Source: a virus
Taxonomy: Duplodnaviria; Caudoviricetes
IMG/VR virus record: IMGVR_UViG_3300009682_000003
Location: 1 to 64,000 of that record
Strand: one strand, 5' to 3'
DNA: 64,000 nucleotides
Made by a program: the position numbers and the translations under genes. Shown piece by piece: positions 4,239-46,808 of this stretch. A model generated the notes under the pieces. That model made no database searches. It was not told the DNA's origin and was given only the letters and a program-made list of their open reading frames with translations. How positions within the stretch are numbered: the first letter of the stretch is position 1; every line of letters begins with the position of its first letter.

Positions 4239-4285
4239 GCCCACGAGGCTACCACGGAGGTGCGAGCGGCGTGTATCCTTGCGGC

Positions 4286-26382: not shown

Positions 26383-26385
26383 GTG

Positions 26386-28029: not shown

Positions 28030-28059
28030 TGCCGATCCCCTGGTCTGAAGGGGTCCGGC

Positions 28060-28416: not shown

Positions 28417-28419
28417 GGG

Positions 28420-28626
28420 TCACTCCTTGTCCTTCGCCCCTTCGCCTGGGCACCCGAGGTAGCCGCGGGTCGCGGCTTCGCTCATGAGCATGCCCAGCGC
28501 GAAGGGGGACAGCCGAACTGATTGCCCGTGTTCGGAAAGCACAACGGAGCCGTCGTCCTCGAAGGATGCGTCCGGGCAAGAGGCACAGCCCCCGCCGCAC
28601 AGTGTCACTTTGTTCGCCTTGCTCAT
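28420..28626 (-). CDS. small Cys-containing hypothetical protein
   Basis: CGGGCASCP; coupled. Confidence 0.6.
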   Translation of the reverse strand: MSKANKVTLCGGGCASCPDASFEDDGSVVLSEHGQSVRLSPFALGMLMSEAATRGYLGCPGEGAKDKE

Positions 28627-28643
28627 GCACGCATCCTAACAGA

Positions 28644-29135: not shown

Positions 29136-29174
29136 TGCCTATCTCTCCGATGAGGTTGATCTCCAGGCCTACCG

Positions 29175-30071: not shown

Positions 30072-30083
30072 TGTCTGGGCCTC

Positions 30084-31463
30084 CTACTTGGCCGCGATTG
30101 CGACCGCTGCGACGACAGCGACGGCGACGACGGTGCCGCCGACGATCCACCACACGGTGTTGTCCTTCTCCTCCTCCTTCGGCTGCTCTGCCGAGGGCGG
30201 AAGGGGGATGTTGTGGTCCTTCGCCCACTGCGGGATGCAAGCGGGGAACGGCGTGCACGGCTGCGGGACGTTCGCGGGCCAGTTGCCCGGCTCCGCGAGG
30301 CACTGGGGCCACGGCGTGCAGTTCCAGTTGGGCACGGGCGACGGCGTCGTCCCGGTCCCGGTTCCCGGCTGCGTCTGGTCCGGGGGCAGCTTCGGGGGCG
30401 TCTCGATGTTTCGGCAGTAGCACGGGTCGACTTGCAGGTCGCACAACGCCTTCTTGAAGAAGTCGACGCCCTTTCCCTCGAAGCAATCGCTGCACGACCA
30501 GATCTCGCGAAGACGACCCGGGTTCGCCGTCGCGCACGCACGCAGCTCCGGGTCTTTGAACACCTCCCAGGCGAACGATCCCCACGGCACCTCGCTCCAC
30601 GCAATTTCAGAGTACGGAGCCGAGGTCCAGTCCACGTTCGCGAAGTCGGGTGCGCCCTCGTTGATGAACATTCCGCCGCCAGGGATTGCGACGGGGGAGA
30701 ACTGAAGCTCGCCCGCTGCGAGCACGCCCTGGCTTACCGCCTGCCGCGGCGCGACCTGTGCGCCAGAGTACAGCGGCGGCTTCGGCACCTTCTGCATGAA
30801 GGCCCAGAACTGCGCCTGGTCCGTGGGGAACTGAGCGGCAATCGCGGCCCACGGCACGTAGCGCCAGGGCACGTCGGCCCACGGGATCGACTGCGCGATC
30901 TGAGGGACCGAACCCGCGGCGCGCGTTGCAAGCACAAACTGGGCTGCGCTCGCAACCATTTTCTGCACGTAGTCGCGCTGCTCCGGGGTCAGCGTGGGCG
31001 CCGCGCCCGTGGGCAGGATAGGCGGCAGCGTCGGAAAGCGATCGTACAGGTACGGCCACCACCCAAGCACCACCTCCGCGACGTAGCCCCAGCTCACGTC
31101 GGCTGGAAGCTGCACGCCGGGAAAGAGCGCTTCGAGTTGCTTGGCGAGGTAGGACGAGAGCGTCACGACCCATTCGTCCTCGTTTGCGCCAACGGCCCCG
31201 CTCGAGCGAGACTTCGCCCAGCTTGCGGGAACCAGCAAGCGCTCACCGTGGTTGAGCTCCGCGAAGGTGCGGAAGCGACGCCGCTCGGGGTCGTGCGCCG
31301 CAAGGCGCTTGCTGAGCATGTTCGCGGCGATCAGCTCAGGGTAGCGCCGCGCGTCGCCCGTGAAGCGCTCCGCGATCTTGCCCACGTCATCGCCGGGCAG
31401 CACGACGGCCCGCCAGGTTGCGACCGCCGGCATTGCCCTCGGGATTCCGTCGTTTGCCCACAT
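30084..31463 (-). CDS. Tail-anchored protein with LysM-like domain, Trp-rich repeats and Cys-Pro-Trp repeat
   Basis: VVLPGDDVGKIAERFTGDARRYPELIAAN...GERLLVPASW; IPWADVPWRYVPW; C-terminal TM. Confidence 0.8.
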   Translation of the reverse strand: MWANDGIPRAMPAVATWRAVVLPGDDVGKIAERFTGDARRYPELIAANMLSKRLAAHDPERRRFRTFAELNHGERLLVPASWAKSRSSGAVGANEDEWVVTLSSYLAKQLEALFPGVQLPADVSWGYVAEVVLGWWPYLYDRFPTLPPILPTGAAPTLTPEQRDYVQKMVASAAQFVLATRAAGSVPQIAQSIPWADVPWRYVPWAAIAAQFPTDQAQFWAFMQKVPKPPLYSGAQVAPRQAVSQGVLAAGELQFSPVAIPGGGMFINEGAPDFANVDWTSAPYSEIAWSEVPWGSFAWEVFKDPELRACATANPGRLREIWSCSDCFEGKGVDFFKKALCDLQVDPCYCRNIETPPKLPPDQTQPGTGTGTTPSPVPNWNCTPWPQCLAEPGNWPANVPQPCTPFPACIPQWAKDHNIPLPPSAEQPKEEEKDNTVWWIVGGTVVAVAVVAAVAIAAK

Positions 31464-31466
31464 GGT

Positions 31467-32339
31467 TCACTGCCCTCCGCAGCCGCAGCTTTCGTAGCTG
31501 AGCATGCCGTCCTCTTCGCCTTCCGCGCTGGCCATCGCCGGGCGAGGCTTGCGCCCGCCGAAGTACACGAGCGCGCCGACGCCGAGCACAAGCCCTCCGA
31601 CCACGAGCGCAGGCACGACGTACGAGGTCTTCTTGGCCGGCTCCTCGTAACCCACGGGCTGCGTGCCTGGCGTGCCTGGCGTCGCGCCGCCAGTGCCGGG
31701 CACGGTGCCGGGCTGCGTCCCGGGCACGGGAAGCTCGCTGCGGGGAACCGCGCCAGTGCAACCTGCCGGCGGCGCGAGCGGGACGAAGGCCGAGCCCTGG
31801 TCGGTGAGCGGCACGGGGACGACGCCCTCGGGCTGCCCCGACGACGGGGCCGTCCACCCGGCGCTGTCGATGCCCGACTGAAAGGCGTTTTGTGCGAGCT
31901 GCTGGATCATCGCGCTGTTGGTCAGCAGGTAGGCGAACAACACGCCGTCGAGGGCCACGACGTTGATGTCGCCCAGGCCCGACTGGATCGCTGCCTGGTA
32001 GGCCTGGAGCCCGAACGCCGCGCTGTTGCAGTCCCAGTTGCCGCTGTACACGTCCGCCGGCACGTAGGGCGCCACGGCCTCGTTGCCCAGGATCGTGGCG
32101 ATCATGTTGTACAGGCTCTGCTTGCACAGGTAGACGGCGTTGTCGCGGCTCGTCTCGACCTTTGCCCAGAACACGCAGTCGCCGTACACGAGCGGCTGGC
32201 GGAACCAGATCGGGAAGGTCACCCGCCCCGGCTTGCTGAGATCGACTTGAAACGCCTGGAACAGCGCCTTCTCGCCCTTGCTGGCGCAGAACGGCGTCCC
32301 GAGCGGCGTCACCTTGATGTCCATGAGGTCAACGGCCAT
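31467..32339 (-). CDS. Tail-anchored membrane protein
   Basis: Pro/Gly/Thr linker then YVVPALVVGGLVLGVGALVYFGGRK. Confidence 0.75.
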   Translation of the reverse strand: MAVDLMDIKVTPLGTPFCASKGEKALFQAFQVDLSKPGRVTFPIWFRQPLVYGDCVFWAKVETSRDNAVYLCKQSLYNMIATILGNEAVAPYVPADVYSGNWDCNSAAFGLQAYQAAIQSGLGDINVVALDGVLFAYLLTNSAMIQQLAQNAFQSGIDSAGWTAPSSGQPEGVVPVPLTDQGSAFVPLAPPAGCTGAVPRSELPVPGTQPGTVPGTGGATPGTPGTQPVGYEEPAKKTSYVVPALVVGGLVLGVGALVYFGGRKPRPAMASAEGEEDGMLSYESCGCGGQ

Positions 32340-32342
32340 GGG

Positions 32343-33161
32343 TCACTCCATCACGTCTACCGTCAGCTCGCCCGCGATGCGCCAGTACCTCGCGCTCTGA
32401 ATGAAGTACACGGCCATTTGCGCGAACTGATCAATGAGGGTTGTCGCTGGGAACAGGTCGCGCGGTAGCGGCGACGGCCTGCTCTCCGGGTTCGTCTGGG
32501 CGACCGACGCCCAGAACGCGATCGTGCCTGGTCCTTCGAGCACCACGCCCAGCGTGGGCGCAGCGCCCGTGAGCGAGGTCCAGGGGAACCGCAGGTCGTT
32601 GAAAGTGCCCCACGGCTGCACGGCTTCGCCTGGTGGCTTGCCCGCGTTGATCGGGATGTACCCAGGCCCGCCGAGCGAGGCGGGCAGTGCTTCGTACAGG
32701 ATCGCTGCGTTCAGGTCGTCCGCTACGCGCGACCATCCGGGGATCTGCCCGGTGCGATCCACGGGCTGCATGCGCGTGCGCGGTTGGAAGGTCAGGTGCC
32801 ACGACACGTTCGCGTCGGGCAGCTTGAAGTGCGGCCCGAGCCTGTGCACGTCGAGCTCCACGGGCACGATCGGCGCGGGCGGCTGCTGGTCGGGAGGAAA
32901 CGGCGCGGCGAGCGTGAGGTACTGTCGCAGGTTCGAGACGCGGAACCTTCCCTGCGGCACCTCGGTCGCCGCCAGGCGCACGAGGTATCGCTGGTCCTGC
33001 GAGGTCGTCGGATCGGGCGGAAGCACGATGCCTAGCGAGCCGCGGTCCCCCACGGCCCACGAGGTTCCGACGAACGACGCCGCCGGGTCGTTGCACCTCG
33101 TCGCGACCACGATCCGTCGAGGCCCGAGGGGCTGCCGATCGGGGACGCAATGGTCGGCCAT
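32343..33161 (-). CDS. Putative minor capsid/penton protein (beta-strand rich)
   Basis: Directly downstream of capsid candidates; soluble, beta-rich; GTGATG coupling; fold inferred. Confidence 0.45.
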   Translation of the reverse strand: MADHCVPDRQPLGPRRIVVATRCNDPAASFVGTSWAVGDRGSLGIVLPPDPTTSQDQRYLVRLAATEVPQGRFRVSNLRQYLTLAAPFPPDQQPPAPIVPVELDVHRLGPHFKLPDANVSWHLTFQPRTRMQPVDRTGQIPGWSRVADDLNAAILYEALPASLGGPGYIPINAGKPPGEAVQPWGTFNDLRFPWTSLTGAAPTLGVVLEGPGTIAFWASVAQTNPESRPSPLPRDLFPATTLIDQFAQMAVYFIQSARYWRIAGELTVDVME

Positions 33162-33799
33162 CACGCCCCCTGGTTGGTCACGTCTTCTGGTGGCAGATAC
33201 CCAAGGCTCCGCAGCCTTGCAACGGCCTCCAGCAACGTGATCTCCGTTAGGCGGCAGCCCATGAGTTCCTGGCAGTGGAAGGTCATGCGGACGATCAGCG
33301 GGATCTCGGTCTGTTCGAGTTGCCGCGTGAGCGTCCAGCGCATCCACGGGGAGCTGTCGCGCGGAAGCACAATGCCCTTGTCGCTCAGCATGCCGTCAGG
33401 CATGGAGTTGCCCGAAGCCGCAAACAGGTTCTCGATCGGCTGGGGCGTGTTGGTGAAGTCCCAGGTGTCGACGCCGTCGATCTTGCCGTACACGTCGATG
33501 TACGGAGTCTCGCGCATTTGCCGATCGAACCAGAACTTCAGCGGGCTTCCGGTTGCGTAGTTCGGGCGCTGGATCGTGTACTGCACGCGCTGCACCCAGG
33601 CGTCCGCGTACAGCCTTGATCGGAAGGCAACCTCGACGAAGTCGTTGACGTTGCCGGTGGTAAACTCGCCTCGCACCTCGTAGCTGTTGGGTCGAAGCGC
33701 AGCGCGGTTCGTCACCAGCACGTAGGCGAGGCGAGGATTGGCGTAGCTGAGCGCGGAGATCTCCGCGGGGGACGCGAGTTGCAGCCTGCTTTCCGTCAT
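33161..33799 (-). CDS. Putative single jelly-roll minor capsid protein
   Basis: 212 aa, beta-rich, first gene after the MCP candidate; fold inferred. Confidence 0.45.
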   Translation of the reverse strand: MTESRLQLASPAEISALSYANPRLAYVLVTNRAALRPNSYEVRGEFTTGNVNDFVEVAFRSRLYADAWVQRVQYTIQRPNYATGSPLKFWFDRQMRETPYIDVYGKIDGVDTWDFTNTPQPIENLFAASGNSMPDGMLSDKGIVLPRDSSPWMRWTLTRQLEQTEIPLIVRMTFHCQELMGCRLTEITLLEAVARLRSLGYLPPEDVTNQGA

Positions 33800-33802
33800 G
33801 TC

Positions 33803-33884
33803 TCGACCTTTCGATCGGCCCGCCGGGGTCGCCCCCGGCGGGGTTCTCCCCCCCCACCTCGCAGGCGCTTACTGATCGCCTGCG
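33803..33884 (-). terminator. Three consecutive hairpins downstream of the MCP candidate
   Basis: 8-bp stem 33860-33884; 10-bp stem with GCGA loop 33819-33842; short stem with GAAA loop around 33803-33816. Confidence 0.7.
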
Positions 33885-33902
33885 GTCACGCGACGGTGTC
33901 GA

Positions 33903-35099
33903 TCAGCCGCCGCAGCCGATGCGGCCCGCGCACAAGGTGTTCAGCACCTCGGTCGTGAGCTTGCCGCTGCCGGCGAGAGCCTGCGCCAGGCTGTTGCACA
34001 CGTTCGGGCTGACCTTGAAGCCCTTGAGCCCGATGCCCAAGCGCAACCGACCAGCGGGAATGCGGGTCTTGGTGCCGCGGGCGGTGCCGGCAATCAGGTT
34101 CTCGTACGTCGGGTAGTTGGCGCCGCTGCCGGCGAAGGGCTCCAGCCCGGTCTGCATCACCGCGGTGCGGATCATGCTGGTGATGTAGTCGAGGTTGCCT
34201 TCGTCGCTGGTGAACTCGATCTTGAGCAGCGTGCCGTTGGTGACCGGAAGCGCGCACGGCAGCTTGTACCAGTACGCGATGTTGGGGTTCGCGCGAAGGC
34301 GACCGAAGCTCACGGGCTCGGGGCCGGGGCGCGTCGGGATGAGGTCGCCTTGCTCCTCGGGGCCGAGCGCCGGTCCCTGCATCGCGTTGGTCGCGACGAA
34401 CCGGCCCACGTCGGGAGCGCCTTCCGTCTCGTCGTTCGCGGCAGCGATGGCGTCCAGCCGGTCGTTGACCTGGCGCTGAATGCGCGCGATGCCGTGGTTG
34501 TTGCGACCGAACCCCTGGTAGTCGATCAGGGCGCAGCAGTTGCCCAGCTCGCTCACGGGCTCTTCGAGGAGCTGCGCGTTGGCGTTCTCGGGGCAGGAGA
34601 GCTTCAGCTTGTAGCCGCGCATGAAGTCCGCAATCGCGTTCCACACCGGGTTGCCGAAGTTGACCTCGGACATTTCGATGCTCGCGCCCTCGGGCAGACC
34701 GAGCTGCGTGGTGTAGATCGCGCCGTTGCGCACGACCTGCGGGCTCGCGAACAGGCCGTCGACTTCGTCGTGCGGAAAAGCCTGAGCGCCTTCGATGTTC
34801 ATGCCCATGCCCTCGCCGTAGGCGTGGACGCAAATCCCGAGCAGAAGGAAGCTGCCCAAGATCTTGAGCGAGTCTTGCGACACCGCGTTGGAGCTTGCGA
34901 ACTTCTTGTTCGACGCGGTGCTCGGGTTCGCGACGAAGATGTTGAGCGGCAGCCTGCCGAGCAGGTCCACGTCGCTCTTTCCGAGCGGCAGCTCGAAGTT
35001 GATCAGGCGGTACTCGACGGTGGGCACGCAGTGCAGCGGCGCTGCAAGGCACGCGTCGAGATCGTCGTAGCACCCAGGAACGATAGTCTTGTCAGCCAT
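33903..35099 (-). CDS. Candidate (double) jelly-roll major capsid protein
   Basis: 398 aa, no TM, alternating beta-strand pattern, GGAG RBS, bracketed by hairpins, central in the structural block; fold not provable by eye. Confidence 0.5.
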   Translation of the reverse strand: MADKTIVPGCYDDLDACLAAPLHCVPTVEYRLINFELPLGKSDVDLLGRLPLNIFVANPSTASNKKFASSNAVSQDSLKILGSFLLLGICVHAYGEGMGMNIEGAQAFPHDEVDGLFASPQVVRNGAIYTTQLGLPEGASIEMSEVNFGNPVWNAIADFMRGYKLKLSCPENANAQLLEEPVSELGNCCALIDYQGFGRNNHGIARIQRQVNDRLDAIAAANDETEGAPDVGRFVATNAMQGPALGPEEQGDLIPTRPGPEPVSFGRLRANPNIAYWYKLPCALPVTNGTLLKIEFTSDEGNLDYITSMIRTAVMQTGLEPFAGSGANYPTYENLIAGTARGTKTRIPAGRLRLGIGLKGFKVSPNVCNSLAQALAGSGKLTTEVLNTLCAGRIGCGG

Positions 35100-35174
35100 G
35101 GTTGTTCTCCGAAAAGGTTGTCGGTCGTCCTGTCAGAAGCCCGCATCGGGCCGTTTGCCCAGGCTCCTGGGCGC

Positions 35175-37286
35175 CTACTTCACCACCATCGACTCGTTGG
35201 TCGCCGGAATGCCTGCCCACATGCGCTTCATGAGGTTCAGGCGGGACAGTTGCAGCTTGCGCGCGGCGTCGACCATGTCGACGATCTCCGCGACGGGTTG
35301 CGCCTCTTCGCCCACGGGTCCGCCCCCGGAGGGCATGTCGGGCTGCATGGGCTCGGCGTAGCCGGGCTGCGCCGCGCCGTTGCCGACCGGCACCTCGTAG
35401 CCGCCATTGCCGGCGGCGCGCTGGGGCCGACCGCTGCGGCAGTCACGCCCGCACTGGCAGTTCACGGACTCGCAGTTGCAGTTGGGGCAGGTTTCCTTGC
35501 CCTTGGTGCCGCACCCGCAGTGCTCGAACCACCCGGGGGCTCCCACCTGGCCGCTGTCCACGCTGCCCTTGGGAGGCTCGCCCACACCAGTGCGCGCGAC
35601 CGGCCCGAAGTCCATTCCACGTCCGCCGAAGCCGGGGACCGGAGGCGGCGGGGCGGGCATCGCCATGGGGCGACCGATCATCCCGGGCCAGCCGGCGGCC
35701 TGACCGTTGCCGCCGTACACGACCTCCTCGGCGCTGGTCGGCGTCGAGGTGGACGGCGGGAGCGCAGGCACGGAGCCCTGCTGCGTCCAGTCCTGCTTGT
35801 CGGCGTACAGCCGGTTCGACCACGTCTTCTCCGCGGGTCCGGTCGCCTTCCAGATCGCCGGCATGATGTGGTCCTGCGTGACCTGGAAGAAGAGCTTGAA
35901 CAGGAAGCCCGCGGCAACGCCGTACATGCCGGCTGCGGCGTACTGCGAGTAGCGCGCGGTGAAGTAGCCGCCGCCGCCGAACACGGCAGCGCCCGCCGCT
36001 TGCGCGAGCATGCGTCCCGCGGAGGCCTTCGTGCGGATCGCCAGCGCGGCCTCGGTGCCGTACTGGGGCTCCTTCGCGTCGGGCTTGGCCATCGTCGCGA
36101 TGGTGCGGTCGACCAACTCTGCGCCGACGACGCCGAACAGGCAGCCGAGGGCCGCGACGCCCATGGTCGTGGCATCCCACTCCACCACCGGGTTTTCCTT
36201 GGGGAACACGCGCTTGATCGAGATCACGGCGTTGCTCTGCGGGGCGAAGTACTTGCCGCTCGGGACCATGCCCTTGGGCGAGCGCTTACCGCGCGTCGTG
36301 GTCGCCTTGGGCTTGGGAGCGCGAGGCGGCTTCGGCGCAGCAGCCGCCGCAGGCGCGGCAGCCGGCGTGCCCATTGCCTGCCAGGCCTTCTCCAGGTTCT
36401 TCATCGCGATCTCGCGGCGCTGTTCCTTCGACAGGCCCTTCTTCGCGGGAGCCTTCTTTTCCGCGACCTCGGATGCCTCGCGTCCGCGGCGAGGCTTGGC
36501 CTTCGCCTTGCCCCTGCTGCGCGTGCCTGCCTTGACGCCGCGCGCGCTCCACGCCTTCTGGAGGTTGCGCATTGCAATTGCGCGGCGCTCGGCCTTGGTG
36601 AGCTTCTTCTTCGCCATGTTCGTGACCCTCGTTGGTTGTGGACTCTCGGCGGCGCGACCAAGCACAGCCGCATGCAACGCACTTGGCGCGTGCGCCGTGA
36701 TTCCAAACCGCGCATACGCCTTCAGAATGTTCTGCCTGATCTTCTCGTACTCGTTGGGCGTGTAGTACCCACGCGGGAACCAAGTGTTGAGAAGCCCCAT
36801 CGCCGCGATTGCGTGTTGGGCGTCGTTGATCGGAAAGCGCCGGTTCTTGGGGTCCGCGAAGGCGCTGTCGGGCAGATCGTCGCGCGCCGCCTTGGTCAGC
36901 TTTTCGTCTGCCTCGCGCGGAGCGATGAGCATGCTGCCTCGCTCGACGACCTCGCCCTTGCGCACCGCCGCGTCTACCACCGCGCGCGCCTCTTCGAGCT
37001 CAAAGCCGGAGTCAACGAGCGCGGCGATGGCGCCCTCGCGGTACATGGCCCCATCCCGAATCGCGCTCATTGCTTCGCCTGCTGGCGCCGTCGCAGCGCC
37101 AACGGGCAGCAAGCTGTCCATCGCGATTGCCCAGTGCTTGCCTTGCACCCCTTGCTGGATCACGCGCTCGTGCATGCTCGACGGCACGTTCGCTCGCGCA
37201 AGAAATCTGCGCGCCGACTCGAGCGTCATCGAGCCTCGCTTGCGGAACTCCGCAACGAGCCGTTTGCGTGCTTCAGCTTCGGTCAT
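35175..37286 (-). CDS. Multidomain basic membrane protein preceding the MCP (DUF6582-like motif, Lys-rich repeats, TMs)
   Basis: DLPDSAFADPKNRRFPINDAQHA; RRAIAMRNLQKAW and RREIAMKNLEKAW; hydrophobic segments; Cys cluster. Confidence 0.75.
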   Translation of the reverse strand: MTEAEARKRLVAEFRKRGSMTLESARRFLARANVPSSMHERVIQQGVQGKHWAIAMDSLLPVGAATAPAGEAMSAIRDGAMYREGAIAALVDSGFELEEARAVVDAAVRKGEVVERGSMLIAPREADEKLTKAARDDLPDSAFADPKNRRFPINDAQHAIAAMGLLNTWFPRGYYTPNEYEKIRQNILKAYARFGITAHAPSALHAAVLGRAAESPQPTRVTNMAKKKLTKAERRAIAMRNLQKAWSARGVKAGTRSRGKAKAKPRRGREASEVAEKKAPAKKGLSKEQRREIAMKNLEKAWQAMGTPAAAPAAAAAPKPPRAPKPKATTTRGKRSPKGMVPSGKYFAPQSNAVISIKRVFPKENPVVEWDATTMGVAALGCLFGVVGAELVDRTIATMAKPDAKEPQYGTEAALAIRTKASAGRMLAQAAGAAVFGGGGYFTARYSQYAAAGMYGVAAGFLFKLFFQVTQDHIMPAIWKATGPAEKTWSNRLYADKQDWTQQGSVPALPPSTSTPTSAEEVVYGGNGQAAGWPGMIGRPMAMPAPPPPVPGFGGRGMDFGPVARTGVGEPPKGSVDSGQVGAPGWFEHCGCGTKGKETCPNCNCESVNCQCGRDCRSGRPQRAAGNGGYEVPVGNGAAQPGYAEPMQPDMPSGGGPVGEEAQPVAEIVDMVDAARKLQLSRLNLMKRMWAGIPATNESMVVK

Positions 37287-37720
37287 GGCCAGACGAAGCC
37301 GCGTTCGTCGACCACGCACCCATCGGGCAACACGAGCATGTAGCCGAGGCCTTGCTCGTGAAAGAAGAACGGACACGGCACACTGAAACGGTGCCTGTAC
37401 CGCCCCTTCCGTTTGCCTCTTCGTGCGTAGTAGAGAACCACGGCATCGTCGAAACGCTGCCAGAGTGGCGAAGGGATTTCAACAGTCGCGCGCGTTAGCT
37501 GTGCTGACTTTCCGAAGTAATTTCGCGCAGCTACAAGCTCACCCTTGCTCAGTCTTGCGCACTCTTGTGCCGCTTTGGTGTACGGGAGCACAAGGAATGT
37601 GCACCTGTCCACAAGCCGTCCCTCAGTGTCGTGCACAAGCCCCCAGTCGTCGGGCAGCTCGATCAGGCCCCCGTCCGCCAGTTCAACGCGAACAAGATCT
37701 CCCTTGACTACGAGAGCCAA
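37283..37720 (-). CDS. hypothetical protein
   Basis: Likely TTG start after GGAGG; ATGA overlap with the next gene. Confidence 0.55.
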   Translation of the reverse strand: MALVVKGDLVRVELADGGLIELPDDWGLVHDTEGRLVDRCTFLVLPYTKAAQECARLSKGELVAARNYFGKSAQLTRATVEIPSPLWQRFDDAVVLYYARRGKRKGRYRHRFSVPCPFFFHEQGLGYMLVLPDGCVVDERGFVWP

Positions 37721-38469
37721 CCTTTGCCTCCAAGGAACCACGGCCTCACGCCAGCGATGAGCAAGCCGCCAGTCGCTACGGCAACGATCGCGAAACCCAA
37801 GGCGGCGCCCTTCGCCGCTACTTCGTCGTCCCACCGCAGCGAGCCGCTCTCCCAGCCTGCAAGAAGCACTGGCTTGATCGTTCCCACGACGCCGCTTGGC
37901 TGCTGCCACGAGTAGCCGTGCGCCACCGCTGTGTTGTACGCCGCCAGGATCTTGTTGACGTAACCGCAGTCGGTCTTGAGCCCCCACTGATCCTCGTCGC
38001 AGCACACGATCGTGCCGTCCTTCTTCTTGCGACAGTACACGCCGCACCGAGGCTTGCCGGCGTTGTAGGCCGCAGCGGAACTCACGAGGTTGCCATTGTA
38101 CCGCTTCAGGTTCGAGGCGATCAGCTTCGCTCCGAGGTCGACGTTGACGAACGGTTCCGTCGCTGCGTCCTTGTCGACCGGCGTTCCGGCTGGGATACCG
38201 GCGAGGCCGTTGTACGTCTCGGGCATGAGCTGCATGAGCCCGAGCGCGCCGGCCCAGCTCACTGCGTTCGCGTCGCCCCCCGATTCGACCGCCATGAACG
38301 CAGCGATGATCGCCTGCGGCACCCCCCTGCGCTCGCTCACTTCGTCGATGATCGAGCGCCAGCGATCCACGCCGGTCGGCCACCGTGTCGTCTGCGGGTA
38401 GGTGCCGCCGACCGAGATCCTGCCATCGGGTTCGAGCACCGCGACGGCCTCCGTGCACGGGCTTTTCAT
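37708..38469 (-). CDS. Lytic transglycosylase (SLT) with C-terminal TM anchor
   Basis: MAVESGG, GALGLMQLMP, NVDLGAKLI, AAAYNAG. Confidence 0.93.
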   Translation of the reverse strand: MKSPCTEAVAVLEPDGRISVGGTYPQTTRWPTGVDRWRSIIDEVSERRGVPQAIIAAFMAVESGGDANAVSWAGALGLMQLMPETYNGLAGIPAGTPVDKDAATEPFVNVDLGAKLIASNLKRYNGNLVSSAAAYNAGKPRCGVYCRKKKDGTIVCCDEDQWGLKTDCGYVNKILAAYNTAVAHGYSWQQPSGVVGTIKPVLLAGWESGSLRWDDEVAAKGAALGFAIVAVATGGLLIAGVRPWFLGGKGWLS

Positions 38470-39275
38470 CGCTTCCACTTCGACCTCCACGCGAGCGCTG
38501 CGAGCCCGGCTGCGACGACCAGGCCCACGCCAACGATCACGGCGGTTCCACCGGGGCCGCCGCCAGGCTTCGCTTGATCCGTCGCCCACGGTGGCGCTCC
38601 CTGCGTCGGAGGGTTCGCCCACCTTTCGATGATCGGGGCAGCGAGCAGCTTTGCATGCTCACCGTGGCTGATCGTCGTCCCGAAGTCGGCGTACAGGAAC
38701 GAGCCTCGCGTGCGAACGCTCAGCGGTTGCGGCAGATCCTTGGGCCAGTAAAGCGCGCCGTCGTCGAGCGGCTCGATGCGCTGGAGCATCCACTTGACGT
38801 ACTCGTTGCACGACGAGTAGTTCGCACCTCCGAAGCCGCTCGCGGTCACGACCATCACGCAATCGCCACGCACCGCGCGCTGAGCCGCTGCCAGGTAGCC
38901 TTCCTTCGTCGCGCCGTAGTAGCTGTCGAAGAGCATCACGGCGGACACGCGATCGGCGCTTTGCTTCAGGATCGGGTTGAGCAAGCCGTGGCCTGCGCTG
39001 AAGCTCGCAAGCGTGACCTTGCCGGCGTCGGTGATGCCCGACTTCGCCAGCAGCGCTCCGAGGATGTCGCTACCGAGCGACGAGGCCAGCCTTCCGAACG
39101 CCGAACTTCCGATGCACGACACGGTGTGCTCGGTCGTCCAGCCTGCCATGCTCCCCGCGCAGTCGTACTGGTCGGAGATCCCCTTGTTCACCACGAGCAC
39201 GACGGTGGGCTGCCGCCACTTGACGGAGCGAAGCTCGCCAGAGATCGGGCCTGCCCACACAACGGCGTCACGCAC
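38466..39275 (-). CDS. Alpha/beta-hydrolase-like protein with C-terminal TM anchor
   Basis: VTLASFSAG nucleophile elbow, VMLFDSYY, late His (SHGEH). Confidence 0.6.
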   Translation of the reverse strand: MRDAVVWAGPISGELRSVKWRQPTVVLVVNKGISDQYDCAGSMAGWTTEHTVSCIGSSAFGRLASSLGSDILGALLAKSGITDAGKVTLASFSAGHGLLNPILKQSADRVSAVMLFDSYYGATKEGYLAAAQRAVRGDCVMVVTASGFGGANYSSCNEYVKWMLQRIEPLDDGALYWPKDLPQPLSVRTRGSFLYADFGTTISHGEHAKLLAAPIIERWANPPTQGAPPWATDQAKPGGGPGGTAVIVGVGLVVAAGLAALAWRSKWKR

Positions 39276-40428
39276 GAGTCACCGCCTGCGCCACCTTCAC
39301 CCCGAGGTAGCCGGCGGCTGCTCCGATTGCGAAGGACAGCGCGGCGCCAGCGGCGCTTGTGCCCTCTTCCTTGGCGCCGGGCACGGTCGGAGGCGTTCCC
39401 GCTGGTGGCGTGTTCGTTGCGGGAGGGGGCGTCGCTCCCGACGCCCAGCGCTTCCAGTTCAAGCTGTAGTCCTGCGTGCCGTTCCAGTCCTGCTTGGGGA
39501 TCGTCACCCCGCCTGGGTTCACTTGTTCGCAGTCGCTGGCGGGCGGCTGTCCGACGCCAGCGATCATGCCGGTGATGCACACGCCCTTGTTCGGGTCTTG
39601 CTCGTTCCAGCGATCGACAACGAGCTTCTCGAACACGCGAGGCAGCACGCGCAGCGCCTGGTACTTGTGGTCGCCCACCCCGGTGGGATCGAGGTTGTTG
39701 AACCCCATGATCACCATGCCGTTCTTCTTGATGTAGTACCTGTCGGGGCTGTGCGTGTAGATCGTTTGCGGATAGGACACGCCGCCGGGCAGCTTGCCCG
39801 CAGGCGCGACATACGGTGGCACCTCGTCCACGTCGTAGGTTCCAGGCGGAAGCTCCTCCCAGTCCTCGGGCCAGTCACCGAGAGCATACAAAAGGATCAG
39901 CGCCGCGGTGCGCGTGGTGCTCGCGAACTTGTACGGCGGGTAGAGCTGGTCACCGATCGCGCTGTGCGTGATGATGCAGTGACGCCTGCCGATCGGCGCC
40001 TTCGAGTCAGCGGGAAGCCCGTTCGCGGCGATTGTGGCGAACTCGATCCACGGAGCGAGCGCTGGGATGCTCACGTTAGACCTGTCCTTGTTCGGCTCGC
40101 CGTTGAATCCGGCGTGGATGCCGTCGATCGCGACCGCGGTGTCTACCAGGCCGGCGTCTTGGCTTTTGAGCAGCTCGCGCACGCCCTGGCACGACTCGCT
40201 GAAGCCGAGCAGAGCAACGCGCGCCGGCTGCACCTGGGTGCCCAGCTTGTCGCGCACGAGCTTGCGGATCGGCTGCGGCCCCCAGCTCGCGACTTGCTCG
40301 CGGTAGCCTCGGTTGGGAGGCGTGGGCACGGTGATGAAAACGACGGGGCGCTGGAACTTCGCCTGCACCTCTTTGGGTACGGAGGCGAAGCTCCACGAGA
40401 TCACGACGTCGCGTTGTTCGGTTGCCAT
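39268..40428 (-). CDS. Alpha/beta-hydrolase-like paralog with C-terminal TM anchor
   Basis: VALLGFSES, AVAIDGIH, IITHS, GDHKYQ. Confidence 0.6.
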   Translation of the reverse strand: MATEQRDVVISWSFASVPKEVQAKFQRPVVFITVPTPPNRGYREQVASWGPQPIRKLVRDKLGTQVQPARVALLGFSESCQGVRELLKSQDAGLVDTAVAIDGIHAGFNGEPNKDRSNVSIPALAPWIEFATIAANGLPADSKAPIGRRHCIITHSAIGDQLYPPYKFASTTRTAALILLYALGDWPEDWEELPPGTYDVDEVPPYVAPAGKLPGGVSYPQTIYTHSPDRYYIKKNGMVIMGFNNLDPTGVGDHKYQALRVLPRVFEKLVVDRWNEQDPNKGVCITGMIAGVGQPPASDCEQVNPGGVTIPKQDWNGTQDYSLNWKRWASGATPPPATNTPPAGTPPTVPGAKEEGTSAAGAALSFAIGAAAGYLGVKVAQAVTRA

Positions 40429-40436
40429 GGCTCACC

Positions 40437-41942
40437 TCACCCGTACATGGGCAGCATGGGGTACGGGCTCGGATAGCCCATCATGCCGCCGTAGCGGCGG
40501 CGCGAAGAGAACGCCGACACCGCGTACACGAGCGCGGCGGCGGCTCCCAAGCCCACAACGGAGATCCCCACGATCTTCGCGGTTTGGGCGAACTCGGTGA
40601 GCGGGTCGTGCTTTTGCGTCTCGGCCTGTGCGGCTGCTTGCTGCTGTGCGGTTTCGCCCAGCGAGCGCATGAGCCGCTCGACCTCTTGGGGCGTGTAGCG
40701 CTTCGACAGCTCGGCCTGGTGCTCGATGAGATCCTTGCGCCTCCTTCGCTCGATGTAGTCCTTCGCGGTGCTCGCGGCGGCAACCACGGCAATGGCGCCC
40801 GCGATCGTCGCGGCGATCACGATGATCACGACGCCGGCTCCGATTTGCGGCGCGGCCCCAACGAAGCCCGCTGGGATCACGCTCGCGACCGTCTGGTCGT
40901 TCGAGGTCAGGATGATCTCTCCGTCTCCCTTTACGTAAACGGCTGGCTCGTACGAGTAGGCGACGGGTCCGGTCCTGCCGGTCGCCTGATCCGTCTCGAC
41001 GCGGCGCTTGCCGTCCGCTGCGTCCTTCGAGTAGGCCGCGGTGACGGTCGCGATCTTGTCGAGGTTGCGCAAGCGGTCCTCGTGCTCTTGTGTCCACTGT
41101 CCCTCGCCGCCAGCGTACACGTACTGGTCGACGACGGGCTTGCCCATCGCTTCGCGCGTCGCGCGCATAAGCAGGTAGGAGCGCACGAGGTCGCCCTGCG
41201 CCTGCCTGAGCTTGCCGTACACCGCAGCAAACGCCGCTTGCGTCGCGGCGAGATCCTGCCCCGTCAAGGGCACCAGCTCAGTTGCCATGGTTCCTCCAGT
41301 TGCTGGCTGGCCTACGCCAACCGCGATGCTCGGTGGGCTCCCAACCCCGACGAAGTCTCCGTTCACCCTCGGCTTGAGAGCCGGCGGCGAGGCGTCACAG
41401 CGGCCCGCCCGATCGCACAGAACTTCCAGCTCGGGGACGCTGACCCAAACCTCTTGCGAGGGAGGCCGGCTCGTGCCGAAAGCGAAGCGCGCGGACGGGT
41501 CCGCGTAGTGCCACTGGTGGCCGTCCCAGGCCGAGGCAAGGACGTGTTCGAGCGCGGTGTCCTCGTAACGGTGCGCGACGACGGCAGCCCTGATCCCGAC
41601 CGATTCCCACGCCGCCACGAGCGCGACGACGAGGTCGTCGCAATCCCCTCCGTTCAGCGTGAGGCCTTCGCAGTCTGCCACCACGCAGTCGGCGGCGACG
41701 ATAAGCTCGGCGTCGACCGGGTCGGGCACGTAGATTTTTTCGCGCACCAGGCCGTCGTAGATCGCGCGCGCTCGCTCGAGCGTCGAGGTGGGAGAACCGG
41801 CCTCCCTGATCTTGTCGATCGCCCACTTGCGCACCCACACGTTGCGGCGACCGCTCGCGGCCTTCTCTGCTGTCTTCCACACCGATCGCCAGGCCCCCAC
41901 CTGGCCTCTTGGGTGCGTGCCCAGCTCGACGCGCGGAGACAT
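40437..41942 (-). CDS. Transglutaminase-like (papain-fold) putative protease fused to a two-TM membrane domain
   Basis: GGDCDDL (Cys), EHVL (His), WHYADPS (Asp); TMs in C-half. Confidence 0.8.
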   Translation of the reverse strand: MSPRVELGTHPRGQVGAWRSVWKTAEKAASGRRNVWVRKWAIDKIREAGSPTSTLERARAIYDGLVREKIYVPDPVDAELIVAADCVVADCEGLTLNGGDCDDLVVALVAAWESVGIRAAVVAHRYEDTALEHVLASAWDGHQWHYADPSARFAFGTSRPPSQEVWVSVPELEVLCDRAGRCDASPPALKPRVNGDFVGVGSPPSIAVGVGQPATGGTMATELVPLTGQDLAATQAAFAAVYGKLRQAQGDLVRSYLLMRATREAMGKPVVDQYVYAGGEGQWTQEHEDRLRNLDKIATVTAAYSKDAADGKRRVETDQATGRTGPVAYSYEPAVYVKGDGEIILTSNDQTVASVIPAGFVGAAPQIGAGVVIIVIAATIAGAIAVVAAASTAKDYIERRRRKDLIEHQAELSKRYTPQEVERLMRSLGETAQQQAAAQAETQKHDPLTEFAQTAKIVGISVVGLGAAAALVYAVSAFSSRRRYGGMMGYPSPYPMLPMYG

Positions 41943-41945
41943 GGC

Positions 41946-42329
41946 TCACCCTCCGTAGCGCAGGTTGATCGTGTGCATCGGCGGGTGATAGCTGCCGGTG
42001 TGGGGCGTAACCGGAATCCAGCCGCACCTGCCCTTGACCAGCACTTCCGCCTCGTCGACCACGGCCTGCGTCGACATGCACTTGCCCTGCACGCAGGTCG
42101 GCAGCCCTGCCGCAACCATGGCGCTCGCGAGCATGAGCGACGCCCTTGCGTCGCCCCCTTGGATAGCCTGGACGAACGGGGCGGCTATCGCCTGGGAGGC
42201 GTCAAACGGGTCAATGGCCCTCGCGCGGGACAGCACAAGGTGCACCCACTGCTTGAGCTCTGGCCGCATCGACGCCTGCCAAACGTCGCTGCCCAACGTC
42301 CTGAACGAGCATGCGCTGCACGGGAACAT
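41946..42329 (-). CDS. Possible inactive transglutaminase-like paralog
   Basis: GGDARASLMLASAMVAAGL...EAEVLVKGRCGWIPVTP parallels the neighbour with Cys and His lost. Confidence 0.45.
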   Translation of the reverse strand: MFPCSACSFRTLGSDVWQASMRPELKQWVHLVLSRARAIDPFDASQAIAAPFVQAIQGGDARASLMLASAMVAAGLPTCVQGKCMSTQAVVDEAEVLVKGRCGWIPVTPHTGSYHPPMHTINLRYGG

Positions 42330-42356
42330 GCCATGACGTTACACCAGCGCTGGCCG

Positions 42357-44318
42357 TCAGCCAATGTTGCCGAGGAGTGACGCGAGCGAGCCCACCATTT
42401 GCTGCGCTGCCGCTTGCTGCTGCGCGGTGGGTTGCTGCGGTGGCGGTTGCTGGGGGGGGGGTTGCTGAAACTGCGGAGCCGGGGGCCTCTGCTGCTGCGG
42501 GGGGACGACTCCAGAGGTGTTCACTTGCGGGATCGCGCGAAGCAACGGAGCGACGTTGCTCACGTACTGGCGAAGCTCGTTGTACCGCTGGTTTGTCTCT
42601 TGGAGCTGCGCGACGAGCTGGCGCGTCTGCTCGCCCTCCGCAGCCTCGGCTTGCTTCTTCATGAACTCGGCGTAGCCCTTCAGCGCGCCGAAGATATTGT
42701 CCATGTTCAGGCCGAGCTGGTCGACCAGCCCCATGGGCTTCTTGGTGACCGGGTCTATCGCGGTGCGCCACCCGTTGCGCTCGATGATGGCCGACTCGTC
42801 GCCCTCTTTCGCCGCCGAGGCGTTCTGCTGCTGCTGCGGCTCGATCTCGCGCATCATGTTGCGCAGGTTCATGACGAGCGACAGCGCCTGCTGCGCCGCC
42901 TCGACCGGGCCTGGCGGCGGCTGCGCCGGCTGCTGAGCTTGCTGCTGCGGCTGCGCCGGCTGCGCCGGCTGTTGCGGCTGCGGTGGCTGTTGCGACCACT
43001 GCTGCTGAACCCACTGTTGCTGCTGCCACGGGGGGAGCTGGAAAACCCAAGGCGGGATCTGTTGCACCCACGGTGGGAGCTGCATGGTCTGCTGCTGTGG
43101 GAACGGCTGCCCGATCTGCCCTTGCTGCCAGGGGGGCTGGCCCCACTGCCCTTGCTGTTGCTGCCAGGGGGGCTGGCCCCACTGCCCTTGCTGTTGCTGC
43201 CACGACTGCTGGGGCGCGCCGAACCCTGGCTGCGGCTGCTGGGCCGCTGCCCTAGCTTGCGCTTGCGCGGACTCCAACACCGAGGAGATCCGGTCCTCCA
43301 AGTCGTCGAGCTTCGCGCGCAGCATTTCGGCCTCTGGGTTGGGCGGCGGCGGCGGCGGCGGCGCTTGTGCAACCCCAGCCGCAGTAGGCTGCGCCGGGTG
43401 TTCGGAGGCCTGGGAGCTGCGCTTCGCGACGTCCGCCACCTGCTGTGCGAGCTGCCACATTTGCCACTGAAGCAACGTCCACTGCTCTCGCTCTTGCGCA
43501 GACTGTTGGGCAGGCGGCTGTCCCCACCCGCCTTGCCCCCACTGCTGCGGAAACTGCTGCGGCGGGAACTGCTGCGGCGGGAACTGCTGGGCCTGCGGCT
43601 GGCTCGGCGTCGGGACCGGCGGCTGAGCAGGCGCCGGGGCCGGGGGTGGTGGCTCGGGAGCTGCTGGCGCGGGCGCCGCAATATCCCGCGCGTAGCTCGC
43701 CAGCTTCTGTGTATCGTACGATGCAGGCCAGGGCTGGTGCATCCACGGGGGCATTCCGTTTCCGCCTTGTGCCCAGGGTGGCGGCTGCATCCAGGGCGGC
43801 ATCTGTGCCCACCACGGTGGCTGCTGCTGCTGCTGCTGCGGCTGTTCCTGCCTCGTCGGTTCCTGTCGGGGAGGTTCGCCCATCATTCGCTCCTTCCAGC
43901 GGCGCTGCGCCTCGGGGTTCGCGGCCTTGACGATCTGGTCCTGCGCTCGAACGATGATGGGGCCGTCGTGGATCTTCCACTCGAAACTTGCTTCCTCGCC
44001 GTTCCAGTACCGCTCTTCGATATGCCGCGTTAGGTCGTCGTACTGGGGCACCGCCGCGAGCGGCAGGCTGAAGCAATGCGCCTCGATCGGCCTCACCTGC
44101 GTGACAACTACCTTGAGCGCGCCGCCGTAGGCGCGCATCACTGGGTTGTATCGCATCGCTCCGCGGTTCTTCCACGACACGCGCGGCTTGCCGGCTTGCT
44201 TCTGAGCGATCACCGACGCGGCGATCTCGCTCTCGCGCTTGGAGTCTTCGTCGAAGTACTCGGGCGTGTCCTGCTCGTCCTGCACCTCGTCGTCTTCGTC
44301 GTCGTCACGCTTCGCCAT
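42357..44318 (-). CDS. Gln/Pro/Trp-rich low-complexity protein with coiled coils
   Basis: Acidic start, folded N-domain, QQQQGQWGQPPW repeats, helical C-part. Confidence 0.8.
   Translation of the reverse strand: MAKRDDDEDDEVQDEQDTPEYFDEDSKRESEIAASVIAQKQAGKPRVSWKNRGAMRYNPVMRAYGGALKVVVTQVRPIEAHCFSLPLAAVPQYDDLTRHIEERYWNGEEASFEWKIHDGPIIVRAQDQIVKAANPEAQRRWKERMMGEPPRQEPTRQEQPQQQQQQPPWWAQMPPWMQPPPWAQGGNGMPPWMHQPWPASYDTQKLASYARDIAAPAPAAPEPPPPAPAPAQPPVPTPSQPQAQQFPPQQFPPQQFPQQWGQGGWGQPPAQQSAQEREQWTLLQWQMWQLAQQVADVAKRSSQASEHPAQPTAAGVAQAPPPPPPPNPEAEMLRAKLDDLEDRISSVLESAQAQARAAAQQPQPGFGAPQQSWQQQQGQWGQPPWQQQQGQWGQPPWQQGQIGQPFPQQQTMQLPPWVQQIPPWVFQLPPWQQQQWVQQQWSQQPPQPQQPAQPAQPQQQAQQPAQPPPGPVEAAQQALSLVMNLRNMMREIEPQQQQNASAAKEGDESAIIERNGWRTAIDPVTKKPMGLVDQLGLNMDNIFGALKGYAEFMKKQAEAAEGEQTRQLVAQLQETNQRYNELRQYVSNVAPLLRAIPQVNTSGVVPPQQQRPPAPQFQQPPPQQPPPQQPTAQQQAAAQQMVGSLASLLGNIG
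43117..43203. repeat. 36-bp tandem repeat encoding QQQQGQWGQPPW
   Basis: ccccactgcccttgctgttgctgcca at 43141 and 43177. Confidence 0.9.
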
Positions 44319-45653: not shown

Positions 45654-46742
45654 TTACTCCCCGATGGCGCTCGCTCCCGACCACATTGCGGCCAGGTCTT
45701 CCGGGCTGGCGAACTGTTCTTGCCTCTCGCGGGGCTTGCGACGCTGGACGCGGAACGGAGTGCCTAGCTCGGTGAGCGTCGTGTTGGCGGTCCACAGGCA
45801 CCAGCCGGTCTGGGCGACGAATCCCTCGCGCTTCGCCAGCTTGCGCAACCAGAAGTCGATCACCTTCGACCTCACCTCGTCCTGAGCACTCTCCCCAAGC
45901 GACTTTTCCTGCACCTCGACCCGAGCAAGGTCGTCGGCTCGCAGCCACAGGGTGAGCGCGGCCTGGAGGTCGCGCTGCGTGTGGACGTAGTGCTTGCCGT
46001 GCACCTCGATGAAGATCTCGTCGTACTTGGCAAGCACGCTCTCGACCATCTCCCTTTCCAGAGCCTGGAAAGAGGGAGTGCGCGGAGCGCGATCCTTCAT
46101 CTCTTCATTGGATCTCTTCCTTAAAGAGGTGGCCAGTGCAGGAATTTTCACCTCCCTCCTGAAGTCTGGATCAGGTGGGGTGGTTTTTGACCCACGGTCA
46201 ACCGAGGGGGTAACTTGCCGTTTTTTGTTGGTGTTTCGCTTGCCGCGACCCTCTTGCAGGTGGCACCTGAAGTCTGCTTCAGGTGGTTGCGCGTTCAGGT
46301 GCTTGCGGGTTTTAGCAACGAATCCGGTCGGTTCGGTCCCCGTTGGCTCGAGCGGAACCTCGGTCGGGCCGCTGCCGGCGCCGTCCAGGTTGGCGTCGCC
46401 TGGCTCGCTCGGGAGCGGCCCGCTGTGCATCCACTCGTGCTCCAAGAAGTAGTACAGGCTCGACCTGCCCTCGGCCTTGCGGTCCACCACCTCGATGAGC
46501 CCAGCCTCGCGCAGCTTGCGGATCGACGCGAAGATGGTGCGCTCGCTCACGGCTAGGTCGTCGGCCAGACGAGCCACCGAAGGGTAGGCGTAGCCGTGCC
46601 GACCGGCGTACTGGCAGAGCCTGGCGTACAGGATCTTCTCGTTTGGTGTAAGCTCTGGCTTTGACAGCAGCCAATTTGGGAGGAACGCTCCCGTCCAGAG
46701 CCGATACGGATTGATTGCCCCGCGGGGCGCTTGCCTCGACAT
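45654..46742 (-). CDS. Phage replication initiator with N-terminal winged HTH (HTH_36-like)
   Basis: LTPNEKILYARLCQYAGRHGYAYPSVARLADDLAVSERTIFASIRKLREAGLI. Confidence 0.88.
   Translation of the reverse strand: MSRQAPRGAINPYRLWTGAFLPNWLLSKPELTPNEKILYARLCQYAGRHGYAYPSVARLADDLAVSERTIFASIRKLREAGLIEVVDRKAEGRSSLYYFLEHEWMHSGPLPSEPGDANLDGAGSGPTEVPLEPTGTEPTGFVAKTRKHLNAQPPEADFRCHLQEGRGKRNTNKKRQVTPSVDRGSKTTPPDPDFRREVKIPALATSLRKRSNEEMKDRAPRTPSFQALEREMVESVLAKYDEIFIEVHGKHYVHTQRDLQAALTLWLRADDLARVEVQEKSLGESAQDEVRSKVIDFWLRKLAKREGFVAQTGWCLWTANTTLTELGTPFRVQRRKPRERQEQFASPEDLAAMWSGASAIGE
46149..46301. repeat. Iteron-like repeats inside the initiator gene (candidate origin)
   Basis: CCTGAAGTCTGGATCAGGTG (46158) vs CCTGAAGTCTGCTTCAGGTG (46266); perfect 9-bp inverted repeat 46264-46285; T-rich tract between them. 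Confidence 0.6.
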
Positions 46743-46808
46743 GATCGGTTCCCCTTCGACGCCCCGCCGAGCCACGACGGGGCGCCGCTCTTTCAGCCCC
46801 GGGCTGCG

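Follow-up and report, generated by a model that had tools for sequence, protein, structure and literature searches.

A membrane-anchored transglutaminase-fold enzyme in the particle-gene block of an uncultured virus and its candidate role as a wall-peptide hydrolase

Among tailless phages that contain an internal membrane, PRD1 possesses a virion lytic transglycosylase, P7, which resides in that membrane and is used at genome entry. To our knowledge, the deployment at entry of the membrane-borne enzymes of such phages is known mainly from PRD1, and we know neither of a transglutaminase-fold partner in PRD1-type phages nor of a maturation protease used by tailless membrane-containing phages. 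Virion-associated wall hydrolases commonly pair a glycosidase with an endopeptidase of the papain clan. In several viruses with an internal membrane or a jelly-roll capsid, particle precursors are cut beside Gly by cysteine proteases, namely adenovirus AVP, poxvirus I7L, and pS273R of African swine fever virus (ASFV), which belong to clan CE (Ulp1-like), share the catalytic order His, Glu/Asp, Cys, and have proven cleavage activity. PeiP of the Methanothermobacter phage psiM2 and PeiW of the prophage psiM100 are pseudomurein endoisopeptidases (Pei, peptidase C71), which cut the peptide cross-links of the wall. LapG is a site-specific, calcium-dependent protease whose cuts fall at small residues, [T/A/P]AA[G/V], within a flexible stretch of its substrate (10.1101/198937), and SSIP-1 is a tailless phage with an internal membrane (PMC6356626). 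In this article, these systems are compared with the product of a minus-strand gene at 40437-41942 of the window, referred to below as the enzyme; the window is the whole stretch of DNA analysed, 64,000 nucleotides corresponding to bases 1-64000 of a 72,723-bp virus record of the IMG/VR database, with about 67% G+C and a CheckV completeness of 96%. Other genes are referred to by their first coordinate in the window.

It can be regarded as confirmed that this gene encodes a real and conserved Cys-His-Asp enzyme of the transglutaminase fold, anchored in a membrane. The Pfam family PF01841 (Transglut_core) is matched at residues 50-149, a marginal match (23.8 bits against a curated cut-off of 23.0, E 5.7e-5) that is also returned for 6 of 32 long homologues and for the family members P0005 and P0009. 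The model of residues 1-229, calculated from a deep family alignment, has a predicted local distance difference test (pLDDT) score of 91.6, compared with 81.8 for the full-length model, and its alignment to 3kd4 with VIA-align yields a Z of 13.1 (root-mean-square deviation 3.4, 148 residues aligned). Lower Z values connect the domain with factor XIII, TG3, TG2, and one bacterial transglutaminase (9.4-10.4), PNGase (9.6), LapG (9.5), PeiP and PeiW (8.9 and 8.6), and CPR-C4 (8.0), and Foldseek agrees with VIA-align on a fold of the transglutaminase type. Nine residues do not vary in 40 full-length members of the family (D74, P75, D100, C101, D102, G116, H133, P149, and E164), with D148 close to invariant, and when short forms are included (93 members), D74, C101, and H133 still do not vary. 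An intact Cys-His-Asp triad on this fold, which an earlier note on this DNA had read from the letters, is therefore upheld by the Pfam match, the fold alignment, and conservation among homologues.

The enzyme consists of the transglutaminase-like domain, a tether, a domain of helices and strands, two membrane helices, and a tail rich in Tyr, Pro, and Met. Its N-terminus agrees with the family consensus, so the start codon is right. No signal peptide was recognized at the N-terminus, which is polar (M-S-P-R-V-E-L-G-T-H-P-R-G...), and strongly hydrophobic segments outside the core occur at the C-terminus only. Within the middle domain, W283 and R313 are nearly invariant in the family, as is G362 in the P-x-G-x-V-G string that precedes the first membrane helix.

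The role that we favour, with a probability of roughly 40%, is that of a virion wall-peptide hydrolase used at entry, which is preferred to that of a maturation or self-release protease. Building on what was observed, namely the fold, the triad, the membrane helices, the neighbouring genes, and a homologous structural protein of a phage, we infer the following location, topology, substrate, and timing for this virus. As a virion protein, the enzyme would be anchored in the internal membrane of the virus by its two C-terminal helices, and because it has no signal peptide, its N-terminal hydrolase domain should face the capsid side of that membrane. It belongs to a conserved string of tail-anchored enzymes, composed of a Cys-less paralogue, the enzyme itself, an alpha/beta-hydrolase-like protein, an SLT transglycosylase, and, further on, LysM proteins, in which it would serve as the peptide-cutting partner of the SLT glycosidase. 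Infection would expose the membrane and its enzymes at a vertex, whereupon the enzyme would cleave the wall peptides of the host at amide or isopeptide bonds, in a manner comparable to the cutting of pseudomurein cross-links by PeiP and PeiW.

Wall hydrolysis is favoured because a Cys enzyme of the papain clan here has conserved neighbours, namely the alpha/beta-hydrolase-like protein, the SLT protein, and the LysM proteins, that are all tail-anchored alike, a combination usual for wall penetration by virions, and because PeiP and PeiW show that the fold can cut wall cross-links. According to a hydropathy scan, a common design of domain, linker, and C-terminal helix recurs in at least eight proteins of the block at 25771-44318, among them the SLT protein and two proteins with LysM-type matches. 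The enzyme is thus encoded among particle genes beside other wall-acting domains, in an arrangement whose synteny is conserved. Several observations weigh against this role. Nothing in the sequence or structure marks peptidoglycan as the substrate, and in the VIA-align comparison proteases, cross-linkers, PNGase, and acyltransferases stand among the structural neighbours at similar Z; the chemistry cannot be read from the fold, to which proteases, isopeptidases, cross-linkers, and acyl-transferases all align with comparable scores. An SLT gene was not detected adjoining the enzyme gene in three of the related contigs (L005, L004, and L009). The virion location derives from one GenBank annotation of a distant homologue, gp34 of SSIP-1. 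Finally, wall hydrolysis leaves unexplained a conserved and repeated Gly motif in the flexible tether of the enzyme.

Directly after the catalytic domain, the family consensus reads R-P-x-G-D-F-V-G-V-G-x-P. Of the 91 homologues that have an upstream G-x-D-C-D, 70 contain this motif in a permissive form, and the motif also occurs in short forms of 210-280 aa, which comprise only the domain, the motif, and one anchor helix. The disordered tether, residues 201-218 of the full-length model, contains a second copy. In the 35 aa that follow the first motif, 21 of 106 members contain a further copy of the form G-x-[VLMI]-G-[QEDAS], compared with 3.3 ± 1.8 in shuffled sequences (maximum 9 in 1000 shuffles), preferably 3-8 residues beyond the first motif, and the form hydrophobic-G-hydrophobic-G follows the first motif in 18 of the 106, compared with 1.9. 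A recent duplication of DNA by slippage was rejected as the origin of the two V-G-V-G copies of this gene, because their codons differ. The motif in the enzyme itself is real and under selection, which upholds this part of the earlier note.

The motif is best explained by a different role, judged here from sequence and considered rather unlikely overall, in which the enzyme would be a maturation or tether-release protease that cuts after motifs of small residues, such as hydrophobic-G-hydrophobic-G or G-x-hydrophobic-G, in flexible linkers. A first cut in its own tether would free the catalytic domain, possibly followed by cuts in the linkers of other tail-anchored particle proteins; within such a role, self-release is the more probable form, and general maturation is less likely. 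The persistence of the tandem motif in homologues of only 25-50% identity is in keeping with such cleavage, as is the string R-G-M-G-E-P that SSIP-1 gp34 carries between its domain and its anchor. LapG provides the precedent of a site-specific protease of the transglutaminase fold (bioRxiv 10.1101/198937), and family scans including Pfam, PHROGs, and NCBIfam detected no other peptidase-type domain in the block. The best-conserved copy, however, is modelled as ordered on the domain instead of lying in a free linker: residues 191-200 have a pLDDT of 92 in the deep-alignment model (about 60 in a shallower model), because of which the first copy is probably packed on the domain, and the F-V-G-V-G segment may be structural.

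Under a broader version of the protease role, tailless bacterial viruses with a membrane would have in this enzyme their first maturation protease, membrane-tethered, specific for Gly-hydrophobic-Gly, self-releasing, and subsequently trimming or freeing other tail-anchored proteins. This version is unlikely; if true, the enzyme would be a convergent counterpart, on a different fold, of the Gly-specific proteases of adenovirus, poxviruses, and ASFV. The earlier note had proposed that many structural proteins of this virus are precursors cut after a shared Gly motif in their linkers. The strings that it listed do exist at the named genes, but a cut site common to many structural proteins is not supported. 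One of the strings, GQVGA at 379, does not belong to a gene, as the open reading frame at 379-2175 (minus strand) has a G+C content at third codon positions (GC3) of 0.49-0.66 and is a shadow frame. This 598-aa frame overlaps, in another frame, a high-GC3 gene at 1262-2746 (minus strand).

The form [GA]x[VLM]G[QA], taken from the earlier note, occurs 10 times in the block at 25771-44318, compared with 3.3 expected from shuffles of whole proteins or 3.9 from local shuffles over 15 aa (p about 0.01), and 6 times outside the block, where 6 are expected. This enrichment of about 2.5-fold is modest, and the expression was defined post hoc on the same sequences in which it was counted. The related form G-V-G-x-P occurs 4 times in the block against 0.4 expected, whereas plain Gly-hydrophobic-Gly is not enriched there (18 against 15), and hydrophobic-G-hydrophobic-G is equally enriched in the non-structural genes of this genome (9 against about 4). 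As a complementary approach, a matrix derived from the conserved site of the enzyme family gave no other full match in the proteome, and its short form gave no excess in the other structural proteins (2 against 2.25), which also speaks against proteolysis of many partners.

Positional conservation is uneven. AGVGQP of the 39268 protein is missing in all four orthologues, another point against the protease role, and TGVGEP and GQVGA of the 35175 protein are poorly kept in orthologues. The strings of the two LysM proteins fare better, each being kept in two of three sequences: RGALGQ of 29175 corresponds to R-G-A-V-G-A in one homologue and to a shifted N-G-V-G-V-G-A-N in another, and GAVGA of 30084 corresponds to I-G-V-G-A in L007, with no counterpart in P0155. 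This partial retention counts in favour of the protease role.

Individual relatives also provide some support for cleavage, with 12 occurrences of hydrophobic-G-hydrophobic-G against 2.1 in L007 and 6 of G-x-[VLMI]-G-[QEDA] against 2.1 in L005. When the enzyme itself is left out, L005 retains 5 of G-x-hydrophobic-G-[QEDA] against 1.7, and L007 retains 9 of hydrophobic-G-hydrophobic-G against 1.9 and 19 of Gly-hydrophobic-Gly against 9.2; L002 and L004 show no motif excess, and L009 has 6 against 1.9, three of the six from one internal repeat. The latter lies in a 789-aa protein at L009:18688-21057, in which at least three tandem repeats of about 23 aa carry G-D-I-G-D-L-A-G-M-T-G-M and inflate the motif counts of this contig. 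For the five related viruses pooled, again without the enzyme, G-x-[VLMI]-G-[QEDA] occurs 12 times against 7.35 (p 0.07), and less once the repeat, the source of 3 of the 12, is collapsed, so that no clear excess is left to support the protease.

Outside the enzyme, the explanation to which we incline slightly is that the Gly motifs are compositional noise of a genome with 67% G+C, whose linkers and membrane helices, rich in Gly, Ala, Val, and Pro, would yield such strings without any shared function. Three of the ten matches in the block (AILGA, AFVGQ, and GVVGA) lie inside membrane helices, which fits this explanation together with the shadow frame, the poor conservation of position, the post hoc definition of the motif, and the lack of replication in relatives. 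On the other hand, the enrichment in the block survives shuffling of the local composition, as does that of G-V-G-x-P, and each of the two LysM proteins retains the motif in part. Noise of this kind concerns the motif only and is compatible with every role proposed here for the enzyme. In view of the modest post hoc enrichment, the general lack of positional conservation, and the missing replication, the proposal of many precursors cut after a common site was not borne out, and on sequence grounds a shared cut-site motif in this genome is not established. Two other types of processing signal were looked for in addition: a shared C-terminal Gly-Gly end, as in ubiquitin-like conjugation, was not found, and the stretches that immediately precede the anchor helices showed no evident motif of the sortase or exosortase type.

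The residue that follows the motif also bears on whether the enzyme could be a true transglutaminase or acyl-transferase, which would join particle proteins by isopeptide cross-links, or attach them to amines of lipid or wall, and thereby stabilise the shell-membrane interface of a large particle. In this virus, the motif is followed by Gln both in the enzyme and in its neighbour (V-G-V-G-Q-P and A-G-V-G-Q-P), factor XIII, TG2, TG3, and bacterial transglutaminases are among the closest folds, and a tailless particle with 73 kb of DNA might need additional stabilisation. In most homologues, however, the motif is followed by E, D, A, or S, and Gln is not conserved at this position, no conserved Lys or Gln partner was identified, and the microbial members of the superfamily with known activity are mostly hydrolases. 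Taken together, cross-linking is very improbable.

Overall, the interpretation of the earlier note is partly supported, in that its enzyme stands and its many-protein cut site is not supported here, and proteolytic maturation is in our judgement a possible role that comes second to wall hydrolysis. The analysis newly defines a family of transglutaminase-fold enzymes with membrane anchors, which is large, unnamed, and viral almost throughout, and ties it to the cultured phage SSIP-1; the definition pins down a conserved catalytic triad together with a conserved tether motif. Evidence that the enzyme cuts itself, or else that it cuts the wall, would in either case give a function to a protein that hundreds of uncultured virus lineages encode.

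The extent of the family was determined by an exhaustive HMMER search, which returned 560 cluster representatives at E <=1e-3 and 305 at E <=1e-10, many of them full-length proteins of 460-530 aa. The family is large, mostly viral, and so far unnamed and uncharacterised, and its only cultured relative is the gp34 protein of Salisaeta phage SSIP-1. Look-alikes in the Atlas are mostly viral clusters with Transglut_core, and in a viral structure library three unnamed matches, one of which has 304 aa, the same length as gp34, come before PeiP of phage psiM2, the best named match. The enzyme had no match by tblastn in 50,697 phage records and no family in PHROGs or NCBIfam, and an hmmsearch of PDB sequences with the family profile returned noise only, no solved chain being matched. 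A scan of viral contigs with the enzyme protein gave no relative, and a scan of genome contigs with P0155 gave no match; the same contig scan with the alignment A4 gave one full-length relative, on L009, and 26 partial matches. The 14 partial matches that were translated are cellular beta-barrel-plus-transglutaminase-like proteins from metagenome-assembled genomes (MAGs) of Ignavibacteria, Bacteroidota, and Spirochaetia, and such cellular matches tell nothing about the host of the virus.

Among cellular proteins, those most closely related to the catalytic core (G-G-D-C-D-D-L-T-V) are encoded on L010-L035, which are MAG contigs of Ignavibacteria, Bacteroidota, Chlorobiota, KSB1, and Spirochaetia. 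In these proteins of 540-700 aa, a transglutaminase-like domain at the C-terminus follows a long N-terminal part rich in beta structure, and their third catalytic position appears to be Glu. A match in an archaeal pleolipovirus, GacPV1 gp13, was set aside as a lipoprotein of the common transglutaminase-like kind that falls in a different subfamily. An intein-like insertion of 150-350 aa is located exactly before the catalytic Cys in 17 of 152 family representatives, at the equivalent of 41640-41642 in the window, with intein-type junctions (G-D / C-F-x-x-G-T ... D-V-T-V-S-[NQ] / C-D-D-L). The carriers are P0006, P0007, P0008, P0037, P0057, P0073, P0105, P0107, P0109, P0115, P0116, P0122, P0129, P0133, P0135, P0142, and P0144, among which single carriers match Pfam Hint and LAGLIDADG_3; the enzyme gene of the window has no intein.

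The gene order around the enzyme is conserved in homologue contigs, comprising a protein of 650-680 aa, one of about 125 aa, the enzyme, a protein of 370-390 aa, the SLT protein, and then proteins of about 150, 720-780, and about 400 aa. This order holds in L002 and L007 and partly in L005. The 127-aa gene upstream, kept in this position in L002 and L007, aligns to the catalytic domain in a profile-profile comparison with hhalign (probability 79%, E 1.6e-5, with a three-sequence profile; 1.6% with the single sequence). Its product has Ala or Arg at the position equivalent to Cys101 and no His, and from its sequence it may be a pseudo-enzyme partner. Downstream, the 39268 protein carries the conserved motifs G-F-S-x-x and G-D-H-x-Y-Q and has weak leads in the Atlas to esterase and S9 families, with no match in Pfam, PHROGs, or NCBIfam. 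A gene of its type adjoins the enzyme gene in the window, in L002 and L007, and again in the divergent 37-kb contig L009; in L005 a single small gene separates the two, and in L004 the gene lies at another place on the contig. The SLT gene, two to three genes downstream of the enzyme in the window, has the same position in L002 and L007. The LysM-type matches lie in the 29175 and 30084 proteins, and Pfam LysM is matched on the homologue P0156. The gene at 35175-37376 (minus strand) encodes a 733-aa protein with DUF6582, a long stretch rich in Lys, Arg, Ala, and Pro, a hydrophobic region, and a tail rich in Gly, Pro, and Cys; it is conserved in L002, L005, and L007, and the tail of the L007 protein has three V-G-V-G strings.

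The enzyme gene sits in the particle-building block of a virus without recognisable tailed-phage genes. Genes were called on the basis of GC3, which is 0.8-0.9 in the real genes of the record, and the call revealed a long series of minus-strand genes in the window. Among the proteins scanned against Pfam, PHROGs, and NCBIfam, there was no match to terminase, portal, HK97-type capsid, or tail-tube families, and no Walker A motif was present in any called protein of the 72.7-kb record. The gene at 33903-35099 (minus strand) encodes a capsid-candidate protein of 398 aa with the Gly-rich C-terminal string G-R-I-G-C-G-G; its orthologue at L007:16116-17327 has a similar Gly-rich end, G-R-M-G-V-G-K, and the end of the L005 orthologue differs. 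Ordinary accessory genes of phage type encode a C-5 cytosine DNA methyltransferase (14548-15471, minus strand), a PAPS-reductase-like protein (4271-5194, plus strand), and a DnaD/O-like replication initiator (45654-46775, minus strand). The coordinates of the enzyme, its parts, and its neighbours are listed in Table 1.

Table 1. Positions in the window of the enzyme gene, its parts, and the neighbouring genes discussed in the text.
Feature	Position	Strand	Remarks
Whole enzyme gene	40437..41942	-	501 aa, P0001; GC3 0.84, like neighbours
Transglutaminase-like catalytic domain, residues 1-185	41388..41942	-	Pfam PF01841, model, VIA-align
Catalytic Cys101 codon, in invariant D-C-D	41640..41642	-	Cys invariant in 93 sequences
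His133 codon	41544..41546	-	invariant in 93 sequences
Asp148 codon	41499..41501	-	nearly invariant (>=90% of 93 sequences)
G-D-F-V-G-V-G-S-P, residues 195-203, directly after catalytic domain	41334..41360	-	conserved in the family
Second copy A-V-G-V-G-Q-P, residues 207-213, in disordered tether	41304..41324	-	pLDDT <70
Middle domain, residues 223-356	40875..41276	-	helical hairpin and five strands; pLDDT mostly 79-96
P-A-G-F-V-G-A, residues 357-363, directly before membrane helix 1	40854..40874	-	family consensus P-x-G-x-V-G
Membrane helix 1, about residues 368-391	40770..40841	-	hydropathy scan; long helix in model
Membrane helix 2, about residues 457-480	40503..40574	-	hydropathy scan; helix in model
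Upstream 127-aa gene	41946..42329	-	probable shortened catalytic-domain paralogue without Cys and His
Downstream 386-aa partner, alpha/beta-hydrolase-like, membrane-anchored	39268..40428	-	conserved motifs
SLT lytic transglycosylase with C-terminal membrane helix	37708..38622	-	Pfam SLT, E 7.6e-23; helix at residues 270-294

The proteases AVP, I7L, and pS273R, to which the earlier note had likened it, can serve as a functional model only, since the fold and the order of catalytic residues differ: the enzyme has the order Cys101, His133, Asp148 on a transglutaminase fold and is membrane-anchored, whereas the three proteases are soluble. The fold lists of Foldseek and VIA-align contain no clan CE chain, which does not by itself exclude that clan.

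LapG shares with the enzyme the fold and the Cys-His-Asp triad. The acidic residues D100 and D102, invariant or nearly so, flank the catalytic Cys and resemble what we take to be the calcium site of LapG, formed by acidic residues beside its catalytic Cys. LapG is, however, a secreted, periplasmic protein of cells, whereas the enzyme has no signal peptide and is tail-anchored in what would be a viral membrane, and the motifs of the two differ; in the Pfam scan at E <=0.01, PF06035 (BTLCP/LapG, peptidase C93) gave no match, and only PF01841 was returned.

PeiP and PeiW resemble the enzyme in being virus-encoded cysteine enzymes of the transglutaminase fold, although their structural Z of 8.6-8.9 is no higher than that of many other members of the superfamily. 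They differ from it as soluble lysis enzymes of tailed archaeal viruses that carry pseudomurein-binding repeats and have no detectable sequence similarity to the enzyme, and pseudomurein does not occur in bacteria. PRD1 P7, a glycosidase, sets a precedent for enzymes that degrade the wall and travel in the internal membrane of a tailless phage, and its direct analogue in this virus is the SLT gene at 37708-38622.

A homologous counterpart is gp34 of SSIP-1, which was translated from JN880423; this record labels it 'structural protein' and does not call it transglutaminase-like. In a tblastn comparison, SSIP-1 and the genome of the window have in common a DpdA-like gene and two weak marginal matches, with otherwise no detectable common protein. 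gp34 is shorter than the enzyme, with 304 aa, one membrane helix, no F-V-G-V-G motif, and no middle domain. Nevertheless, it matches the enzyme family profile with a probability of 96.6% and E 6e-10 in hhalign, BLASTP gives 2e-7, and the two proteins share the catalytic landmarks Y-V-P-D-P, D-C-D, H-V, and D-P, a C-terminal membrane helix, and, in the tether, a Gly-hydrophobic-Gly-x-Pro string. The enzyme thus belongs to the gp34 type, in which a homologous catalytic domain is followed by at least one C-terminal membrane helix.

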